57,965 nt of DNA, from the NCBI RefSeq assembly GCF_003334765.1, contig NZ_QOWT01000026.1; one strand, given 5' to 3'. The position numbers are program-made. The DNA comes from Escherichia coli (GTDB taxonomy: Bacteria; Pseudomonadota; Gammaproteobacteria; Enterobacterales; Enterobacteriaceae). This document shows, piece after piece, positions 56,329 through 57,965 of this stretch; the first letter of the stretch is position 1, and each line of letters starts with the position of its first letter.

Positions 56329-57965
56329 TCACGACGAATAACCTGACCGTAACAGTTATTTGAACGAATGCGGCAATCGCGTCCGCCATCCTTAATCCAC
56401 CAGCGAATCGCTTCGCATGCACCTTTACGATCACCAGCATTCAGCCGCTTATAAAACGTCGACGGGAAACACTTACCGGGGCCAATGTTATAGGGACAAA
56501 ATGACGCGATACCCGCTTTTTGTGGTTCGGTCAGTGGTACTTTAATATTGCGCTCCACCCATGCCAGCGCCTTATCACGCTCAATGGCGTTGACCTGGTC
56601 GCATTTTTCCTTCGACAGTTTCATATTGGGAAAAACGGTTTTTCCATCCACCACTGTGGCACCCCGACAGATGGTCCATATGCCAGAACCATCGCGGTAT
56701 GCCATTGTGTGGTTACCTTCTTTTTCGTCCAGAAACTGGTCAAGTATCTGAGGAGCAGATGCGCCAGCACCAATCAGCGCCAGAACGGCAGCCGACAGGC
56801 CGTATCTGATTTTTGTGTTCATAGATATTTATGATGAGGACGCTCGTGCTTATTGGCAGGATTTTCAATCTTAAAGGAGTACTGATGCTGCAGATAAGAC
56901 TCAACTTTTTCTGACAATTTTTCTGCTACTTCCAGGAAGACTTGCCGGACGCTCCTTCTGGCTGCTGCCTCATAAAACTCCAGCGCAGCTCCTTCAACAC
57001 GGTCCATGGCGACATCCAGGTCAAAAATTTCACCGTCAAAGCGTTCTTTGTCCTGTAAGGCTACAGTTACCGTAACTTTATTCTCAAAATTACGGACTCC
57101 TTTCACAACCAGTTCATAGTCTTGAGTCATTGGATTACTCTCCTCTCGCAGCCTTACGCCTGTCTTCTTTAATCTTGAAATAAAGATTTGTCAGATACGT
57201 CAGCAGGCCAAAAACCAGGCTACCCAGCACACCGATTGCAGCCCACTGTGACGGAGTTACTTTATCGAGTAACTGCAATGCCCAGAAACCAGCATTACCC
57301 GCCGATGTGCCATAGGCAACACCTGTTGTTAACTTATCCATTGATTTCATATCCTCACCCCGATGTACACGGATGGTGCAATATGTTTGAAAAGATCGGA
57401 GTCTACGGGGTAGTTTTGACAGCACACGTTGTTCTCAACGGCGCTAAAAAAACATACACATTAAAAATGTGGGTAATTATTTTGAAAGAAAGTCATATAT
57501 AAAATAATAATACGAGAAATGTTTTCATATTTAGTGTACTGTATACGGCCATTTATACAGGAAAAGCCTATGTCAGAACGTAAAAACTCAAAATCACGCC
57601 GTAATTATCTCGTTAAATGTTCCTGCCCAAACTGCACCCAAGAGTCAGAACACAGTTTTTCAAGAGTACAAAAAGGTGCCCTTTTGATCTGCCCTCATTG
57701 CAACAAAGTATTCCAGACAAATCTTAAAGCTGTAGCCTGATTGATTTTATTAGTAACAAGTATTTTTTATATTTTAATAATATATTTAAAGCAGATAATA
57801 AAAAACCCGCCTGAGCGGGTTTGAGATTGTGGTGCTTTTTGTGGGAGTCATCCACTTACGCACTTTGTTTTGCCATGCCAGCAGTTAGGGAAGGTGCGAA
57901 CAAGTCCCTGATATGAGATCATGTTTGTCATCTGGAGCCATGGAACAGGGTTCATCATGAGTCAT

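Follow-up and report, generated by a model that had tools for sequence, protein, structure and literature searches.

The lysis cassette of the Qin prophage of Escherichia coli carries a small gene, ydfR, between its holin and endolysin genes. We have analysed this gene in a stretch of 57,965 nucleotides (nt) of an E. coli genome assembly (GCF_003334765.1, contig NZ_QOWT01000026.1), which we refer to as the window. Comparison with related phages indicates that ydfR occupies a junction able to accept different genes, that the Qin allele is the product of a deletion in a longer gene and that the family of its product, DUF1327, extends beyond lysis cassettes. YdfR is probably not a core lysis protein. 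The reading that we favour, and to which we give about an even chance, is that ydfR encodes a late-expressed cytoplasmic accessory protein with an N-terminal domain (N-domain) for which RNase E or RNA is the probable target, and that the Qin form, truncated by deletion, has taken over the Shine–Dalgarno (SD) sequence of the endolysin gene and passes ribosomes on to it.

Identification of ydfR

The region is the Qin lysis cassette, essQ–ydfR–rrrQ–rzpQ/rzoQ (Table 1), and ydfR is b1555 in the annotation of E. coli K-12 MG1655; the window carries the K-12 allele itself. A first-pass annotation of the window had placed a gene of 103 codons between the holin and endolysin genes, starting 4 nt past the holin stop behind a GAGGAG ribosome-binding site and ending in an ATGA overlap with the endolysin start. 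The open reading frame (ORF) is found as described, on the minus strand, and the spacer, the ribosome-binding site and the overlap (56819–56822) can all be read directly in the sequence. The interval given for it, 56819–57134, denoted the right feature and took in the 4 nt spacer; the ORF itself ends at 57130.

The cassette is widespread. A 1.9 kb query covering it was matched at a coverage of at least 80% in 2,077 of 5,426 complete E. coli genomes, and the sequenced phage PhiR42_1, which is deposited as a complete genome, carries the cassette, ydfR included, in identical form. The first-pass annotation had also proposed a profile search and a structure prediction. Both were carried out, giving a full-length match to DUF1327 (residues 1–93 of YdfR against positions 1–93 of the 93 in the PF07041 model, E = 1.2e-53) and a usable AlphaFold2 (AF2) model. 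PHROG families are matched down to E = 4e-58; NCBIfam gave no model for YdfR. The full-length Pfam match, the PHROG matches, the K-12 annotation and the selection on the N-domain described below argue that ydfR is no chance ORF. ydfR, the family to which it belongs and its place in the cassette had already been recorded for K-12 and many phage genomes.

The holin–endolysin junction

In the phage 21 arrangement, as described in the first-pass annotation, the holin gene (S) is followed directly by the endolysin gene (R). This holds among the relatives of the Qin cassette. We compared 80 IMG/VR loci with holins 93–100% identical to that of the window. DUF1327 is missing from 50 of them, and in all 50 the holin stop overlaps the next ATG (TAATG). 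The downstream gene, readable in 47 of these loci, encodes a different endolysin, 33% identical to RrrQ; the one example that was translated (L027, 165 aa) matches the PDB entry RrrD/3hde at about 1e-111 and so is of the phage 21/DLP12 type. The phage 21/DLP12 cassette shares with the Qin cassette the holin family (with its MKSM start and an identical C-terminal tail), a GH24 endolysin of the signal-arrest-release (SAR) type and an Rz/Rz1 pair. It differs in the sequence of the endolysin (about 33% identity to RrrQ), in the TAATG overlap with the holin gene and in having no gene between the two.

In the other 30 loci, and in four annotated phages (PhiR42_1, mEp460, H-19B and Stx2-86), DUF1327 starts exactly 4 nt past the holin TAA. 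The layout GGAGAG-TAA-NNNN-ATG is present in all 34 of these S21-linked DUF1327 loci with five different spacers (TCCA, TTCA, TATA, AGCG and AGTG). Wherever downstream sequence was available, they continue into an RrrQ-type endolysin gene with 88–100% identity.

The same layout also serves R itself. In VT2-Sakai and PhiR5_2 an S21-type holin gene is followed by GGAGAG-TAA-4 nt-ATG and then by an RrrQ-type R without DUF1327. The Shiga toxin 2 (Stx2) cassette of the VT2-Sakai/933W type thus has the same holin type and junction as the window and an endolysin 89% identical to that of the window, but there the junction leads straight to R, whereas in the window it leads to ydfR and R is left without an SD sequence. 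About 355 phage records contain an RrrQ-type endolysin at 80% identity or more, whereas 100 contain DUF1327. The S/R junction is a reusable docking site, at which the SD sequence embedded in the holin gene, together with 4 nt, serves whichever gene comes next.

DUF1327 is not tied to one holin family. In eight loci from E. coli and Salmonella (L101–L108) it lies between an unrelated holin of the PF16080 family and the same 177-aa endolysin. Two of these retain a relic of the 3' end of an S21 holin gene before DUF1327, which reads …KEDKRKAARGE-stop-4 nt-ATG in L101 (2879–3000) and GGAGAG-CAA-TACA-ATG in L105 (2983–3000). The relics suggest that the holin was replaced with the DUF1327 initiation region left intact, and that the SD sequence and spacer travel with DUF1327 as its own initiation region. 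Since DUF1327 precedes an RrrQ-type R in the company of two unrelated holin families, its constant neighbour in lysis cassettes is the RrrQ-type endolysin. The arrangement of holin, DUF1327 and 177-aa GH24 endolysin is seen in lambdoid phages of Escherichia, Shigella and Salmonella, comprising the 34 S21-linked loci, L094–L097, L099, L100 and L101–L108.

Six database proteins (P0034, P0052, P0075, P0083, P0096 and P0099) have a PF04971 holin domain and DUF1327 in one chain. These are probably the result of frameshift or stop-loss read-through over the 4 nt junction, or else gene-calling artefacts.

Translation signals and the endolysin leader

The SD sequence of ydfR is the strongest in the cassette, with a calculated duplex energy of −9.5 kcal/mol, compared with −6.9 kcal/mol for the holin gene and −8.4 kcal/mol for Rz. 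The R gene of the window scores +1.2 kcal/mol and has no SD sequence. In Sakai and PhiR5_2 the value for R is −8.5 kcal/mol, and the signal that drives R in these sister phages is the same one that is held by ydfR in the window. Ten representative loci were scored, and R lacks an SD sequence wherever DUF1327 is present; the other DUF1327 loci that we read have the same SD-less sequence before R. No promoter or terminator was found inside the cassette, and the ydfR strand has no promoter-like or terminator-like site near the gene. The R start, A/U-rich and largely unstructured, was not significantly occluded by RNA folding (z = −1.7), and a search of Rfam found no known RNA family within the cassette.

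The first-pass annotation took the arrangement to imply that ydfR is co-translated with the lysis genes. The anatomy fits co-translation, with a strong SD sequence before ydfR, none before R, the ATGA overlap and no internal promoter or terminator. The functional tie to lysis that was implied is not supported, the overlap being peculiar to the Qin allele (see below), with related cassettes lacking DUF1327 and homologs lying among tail genes. Judged from these sequence features, the Qin endolysin may be translated largely by reinitiation after ydfR.

In most DUF1327 loci R is preceded by an A/U-rich leader of about 25 nt without an SD sequence, GATAAATCCTGATAAATATCC-ATGA. A longer conserved leader, reaching about 90 nt upstream of R, is present in L003–L005, L010, L043, L047 and L099–L108; the window retains only 56823–56835 of it. 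It is built of an A-run, a GC-rich hairpin (an intrinsic terminator if read on the opposite strand) and then CTGAAGAYTTAAC…GATAAATCCTGATAAATATCC-ATGA, and contains a direct repeat of GATAAAT.

Origin of the Qin allele

The window YdfR resembles the DUF1327 proteins of other lambdoid prophages and Stx phages (K-12 b1555, Stx2-86 gp05 and mEp460 gp055) in its N-domain, in following the holin stop and in lying upstream of a 177-aa endolysin. Compared with the members of 174–268 aa, it lacks the C-terminal half, and the ATGA overlap with R is unique to it. In two longer proteins encoded between an S21-type holin gene and R, P0023 (174 aa) and P0121 (206 aa), the Qin-type tail is extended to a longer C-terminus. 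A blastn comparison of the window with L097 showed 88% identity from the holin gene to about codon 98 of ydfR, after which about 360 bp are skipped; the alignment resumes about 13 nt before the ATG of R at 91% identity. In a three-way alignment the join, at about 56833–56840, falls on a CCTCAT/CCTTAT microhomology. These alignments show the Qin ydfR to be a derivative of the 206-aa form that lost its C-terminal half in a deletion of about 360 bp. As the deletion joined the ydfR frame to the leader of R, the last codons of ydfR (…H-K-Y-L-stop) and the ATGA overlap come from that leader.

The ATGA belongs to the R start in all alleles, and the Qin allele is the only one with a translated ORF that reaches it. 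In the other alleles the gap between DUF1327 and R is 50–452 nt and no small ORF consistently ends at the ATGA. The ydfR/R overlap is not conserved among orthologous loci, contrary to what would be expected of a selected coupling.

A sizeable minority of Qin-type alleles carry a frameshift in the part that encodes the C-terminal tail. Their proteins form clusters P0038 (129 aa, with 96 members) and P0024 (94 aa, with 218), while the 103-aa cluster P0002 has 1287 members. In alleles of the P0038 and P0024 types the reading frame continues beyond the ATGA and enters the endolysin gene out of its frame. These frameshifts indicate that cryptic prophages do not strongly maintain either the tail or the overlap.

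Conservation, structure and selection

Conservation across DUF1327 is limited to the first 72 or so residues. Beyond these the proteins fall into unrelated tail classes with varied or truncated C-termini, their lengths being 72, 103, 104, 114, 116, 161, 169, 174, 183, 206 and 268 aa, and frameshift products are frequent. A stand-alone protein of 72–76 aa occurs in phage Evi and in tail-region loci.

The alignment-based AF2 model of YdfR has a mean predicted local distance difference test (pLDDT) score of 81.6. It consists of three antiparallel strands (residues 5–14, 18–27 and 34–43) and a long helix (50–88), a β-β-β-α arrangement, followed by a disordered end. An earlier model from the single sequence (pLDDT 48) was too poor to use and was superseded by this one. 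Residues Tyr5, Glu6, Leu7, Gly47, Leu50, Glu51, Tyr53, Glu54 and Ala57 of the N-domain are conserved in the alignment with other DUF1327 members, Tyr5, Tyr53, Glu54 and Ala57 being invariant. A Foldseek search of AFDB50 returned DUF1327 proteins only, all from Enterobacterales, with TM-scores up to about 0.9 (target-normalised). There are also weak matches to folds like that of the double-stranded RNA-binding domain (dsRBD), for which the reference fold is α-β-β-β-α.

Searched exhaustively with HMMER, 1.84 billion representatives yielded only 57 clusters, and the family is small and self-contained. One metagenomic protein of 3128 aa (P0135) gave six weak matches, at 32% identity, to residues 6–62 of YdfR; it is extremely repetitive, the matches are probably a compositional or repeat artefact and they were not used. 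Scans of viral contigs with proteins P0157 and P0159 gave no match, nor did a tblastn search of phages with P0157.

The median ratio of nonsynonymous to synonymous substitution (dN/dS) is 0.28 for the YdfR N-domain over 23 distinct alleles; in the same loci the holin has a value of 0.055 and the endolysin one of 0.086. ydfR is a real gene under relaxed constraint.

DUF1327 outside lysis cassettes

Remote homologs of YdfR, with 30–34% identity and made up of the N-domain only (76–94 aa), are encoded between tail genes of lambda-like phages, at the M/L, L/K and I/J positions. Their homology was confirmed by reciprocal tblastn, and the DUF1327 family is not confined to lysis cassettes. Such a sporadic distribution over several sites is typical of accessory genes. 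DUF1327 is like a moron in being sporadic between the same S and R and in having homologs elsewhere in late operons; ydfR differs from one in having no promoter or terminator of its own and in beginning 4 nt past the holin stop. The lack of its own promoter, together with the near-zero transcript level in growing K-12 (PMC13232886), marks ydfR as a gene of the late operon rather than a moron expressed in the lysogen.

After nearly every DUF1327 gene other than the Qin allele comes a small opposite-strand ORF (70–180 aa, mostly helical), in lysis and tail contexts alike (Table 1). Each of these ORFs matches a separate PHROG of unknown function. No significant Pfam match was found for them, and an all-versus-all phmmer comparison related only the ORFs of L005, L094 and L099. 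DUF1327 and the opposite-strand ORF could form a convergent two-gene module, which has been lost from the Qin allele.

Published data on function

Residues 1–72 of YdfR have been reported to give two-hybrid signals with RNase G (Rng) and with the RNase E (Rne) N-terminal half (PMC13232886, 2026). In the same work Rne1–598 co-eluted with Strep-YdfR and DNase-resistant nucleic acid (RNA) co-purified with it; the authors could not exclude a contaminant as the holder of this RNA (PMC13232886). Overexpression of YdfR altered few transcripts and caused no growth defect, and ydfR reads were almost nil in normal growth (PMC13232886). The first-pass annotation had assigned ydfR no function, which is slightly outdated in view of this binding and co-purification. 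The fragment recovered in the two-hybrid screen is exactly the conserved domain.

Phages have their own regulators of RNase E, for example T7 gp0.7 and phiKZ Dip. YdfR is reported to bind RNase E as do the regulators or adaptors RapZ, RraA and RraB, and like RapZ to do so at the catalytic N-terminal half (PMC13232886). It differs from RNase E regulators in having no homology to them and in the small number of transcripts that change on overexpression.

The Keio deletion of ydfR is among the mutants positive with chlorophenol red-β-D-galactopyranoside (CPRG), an indication of envelope leakage (Paradis-Bleau et al., 2014; supplement of PMC3879167). We suspect that the kanamycin-resistance (kan) cassette has a polar effect on rrrQ, the SAR endolysin gene just downstream, which would require no function of YdfR. 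A search of the literature on essQ, rrrQ, rzpQ and DUF1327 found no functional work on the cassette.

Discussion

Our model for ydfR is as follows. In lambdoid phages the gene fills a slot that recurs between holin and RrrQ-type SAR endolysin, and it brings with it an initiation region made up of the SD sequence in the last codons of an S21-type holin gene and the fixed 4 nt spacer. Insertion of DUF1327 takes the SD signal away from R and leaves R without one. In Qin, the deletion of about 360 bp joined the ydfR frame to the ATGA of R, with the β-β-β-α domain and the helical tail being kept. Ribosomes that finish the Qin ydfR might then reinitiate on R, so that translation of ydfR would feed endolysin synthesis as a by-product. 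The N-domain itself would act in the cytoplasm, on host RNA metabolism, late in infection; this role is suggested by the published binding to the N-terminal half of RNase E, the co-purification of RNA and the late expression. As the same types of holin and endolysin occur without it, DUF1327 seems to be dispensable for lysis.

Several points weigh against this model. DUF1327 lies upstream of an RrrQ-type R in every lysis-cassette locus examined, even where the holin is of the PF16080 family, which could reflect a functional tie to that endolysin rather than mere linkage. The interaction with RNase E comes from a single study and from overexpression and two-hybrid experiments (PMC13232886). The A/U-rich, largely unstructured start of R might be translated independently, reinitiation at the ATGA being deduced from sequence only. 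Finally, the remote homologs in tail regions may act differently.

The slot in the lysis cassette is fixed and the translational linkage tight, as might be expected of a dedicated cytoplasmic lysis regulator that binds the charged C-terminal tail of the holin, in the manner of T4 RIII or P1 LydB, or that controls the membrane release or activation of the RrrQ-type endolysin. T4 RIII and P1 LydB are likewise small soluble proteins encoded beside the holin, and both the constant position upstream of RrrQ-type endolysins behind two unrelated holin families and the CPRG match of the Keio mutant could be taken to point the same way. YdfR, however, has no relationship to RIII or LydB in sequence or fold, is missing from cassettes that are otherwise equivalent and has homologs elsewhere, among tail genes. 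Holins 93–100% identical, with an identical C-terminal tail, and endolysins 88–100% identical are found without DUF1327, and there is no co-variation. Nor is an antiholin lacking from the cassette, since the dual start of an S21-type gene yields holin and antiholin and the Qin holin has such a start in MKSM. The C-termini of the family are hypervariable or truncated and under relaxed selection, overexpression gave no growth or lysis phenotype (PMC13232886) and the CPRG match could be due to rrrQ being expressed, as a polar effect, from the kan cassette. We regard a dedicated role in lysis as distinctly unlikely.

It is also unlikely, if a little less so, that the Qin ydfR is a decaying remnant, with an inactive protein and an ORF that merely carries ribosomes from the SD sequence in the holin gene to the SD-less start of R. 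The loss of the C-terminal half, the many frameshifted derivatives (such as the 129-aa and 94-aa clusters), a dN/dS several-fold above that of the neighbouring genes and the missing SD sequence of R would all agree with decay. Against this, the N-domain is still under purifying selection among the 23 alleles, phage Evi and the tail-region loci keep a stand-alone form of 72–76 aa, the sequenced phage PhiR42_1 has the identical 103-aa allele and the part that was retained coincides exactly with the fragment for which binding to RNase E is reported (PMC13232886). A further alternative would make YdfR an RNA-binding regulator of its neighbour, acting on the SD-less leader of the RrrQ-type R or recruiting or blocking RNase E there. 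The leader is present in nearly all DUF1327 loci, and phages without DUF1327 give R a strong SD sequence; the RNA that co-purifies with YdfR, the binding to RNase E (PMC13232886) and the weak dsRBD-like matches would also suit such a role. Linkage in one recombining module explains the co-occurrence of leader and DUF1327 equally well, though, and most of the leader is gone from the Qin and L097 alleles, which nevertheless keep DUF1327, while the tail-region homologs have no endolysin nearby. We consider this alternative improbable. We give as little credence to its broader form, in which DUF1327 proteins would be a phage class of small RNA-binding or RNase E-binding factors that accumulate beforehand and gate the synthesis of the SAR endolysin, through the SD-less leader or through mRNA decay. 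If true, such gating would represent a new layer of lysis timing in cassettes of pinholin and SAR endolysin.

With the gene, its family and its position already recorded, the value of ydfR as a discovery is small. What the analysis adds is the junction as a docking site, the SD sequence taken from the endolysin gene, the K-12 allele as a deletion derivative with a secondary overlap and the extension of the family beyond lysis cassettes. Together with the report on RNase E, these observations steer experiments on YdfR towards RNA metabolism late in infection and the translational coupling of rrrQ, and away from the assumption of a lysis protein. For the leaky envelope of the Keio ydfR mutant they also provide a simple explanation.

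Other features of the locus

The features of the cassette are listed in Table 1. The dual start of the holin reads M-K-S-M, and Pfam PF04971 was matched on equivalent holin genes. The RrrQ endolysin has an Ala/Gly-rich, SAR-like segment at its N-terminus, and that of the window has PDB relatives 3hde and 4zpu (about 1e-16).

Table 1. Features of the Qin lysis cassette in the window, and opposite-strand ORFs next to DUF1327 genes in related loci.
Feature	Position	Strand	Basis or remark
Holin gene, essQ type, S21/pinholin family, 71 aa	57135..57350	minus	ORF list; PHROG phrog_9876 and phrog_20; K-12 essQ
SD sequence GAGGAG for ydfR	57140..57145	minus	within last holin codons R-G-E-stop
Holin stop TAA	57135-57137	minus	sequence
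Spacer TCCA, 4 nt, from holin stop to ydfR ATG	57131..57134	minus	sequence
ydfR, 103 codons plus stop, DUF1327 family	56819..57130	minus	Pfam PF07041; PHROGs; K-12 b1555
ydfR ATG	57128-57130	minus	sequence
Conserved YdfR N-domain, codons 1-72	56915..57130	minus	tail analysis; alignments; AF2 model; dN/dS
Deletion junction inside ydfR 3' end	56833..56840	minus	blastn against L097 and L094; three-way alignment
ydfR TGA / endolysin ATG overlap, reads ATGA	56819-56821 / 56820-56822	minus	sequence
Endolysin gene, rrrQ type, 177 aa, GH24 lysozyme	56289..56822	minus	PHROG endolysin; K-12 rrrQ
Rz-like spanin gene rzpQ	55795..56292	minus	PHROG Rz-like spanin; K-12 annotation
Rz1-like lipoprotein gene rzoQ, embedded in rzpQ	about 55845..56099	minus	K-12 annotation
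Opposite-strand ORFs, lysis cassettes	L004:3817-4131, L005:3720-3986, L010:3531-3803, L043:3639-3914, L094:3039-3320, L099:2958-3218, L100:2244-2540		
Opposite-strand ORFs, tail regions	L088:754-966, L089:3273-3821, L093:3282-3506		

Just upstream of the holin gene, on the opposite strand, is an ORF of 56 aa with a CxxC…CxxC zinc ribbon (K-12 ynfU; 57570..57740, plus strand). Upstream of the ynfU ORF, on the strand of the cassette, lies a strong terminator-like hairpin (57803..57822, minus strand). Late transcription would need to pass this hairpin, in keeping with antitermination that depends on Q. Elsewhere in the window, three matches at the Rfam gathering level were found on the minus strand, namely a cspA-type thermoregulator 5' untranslated region (55193..55578), the small RNA STnc560 (39878..40091), which is Hfq-binding, and IS009 (51486..51684). 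The cspA-type thermoregulator precedes cspI, the gene directly downstream of the lysis cassette.

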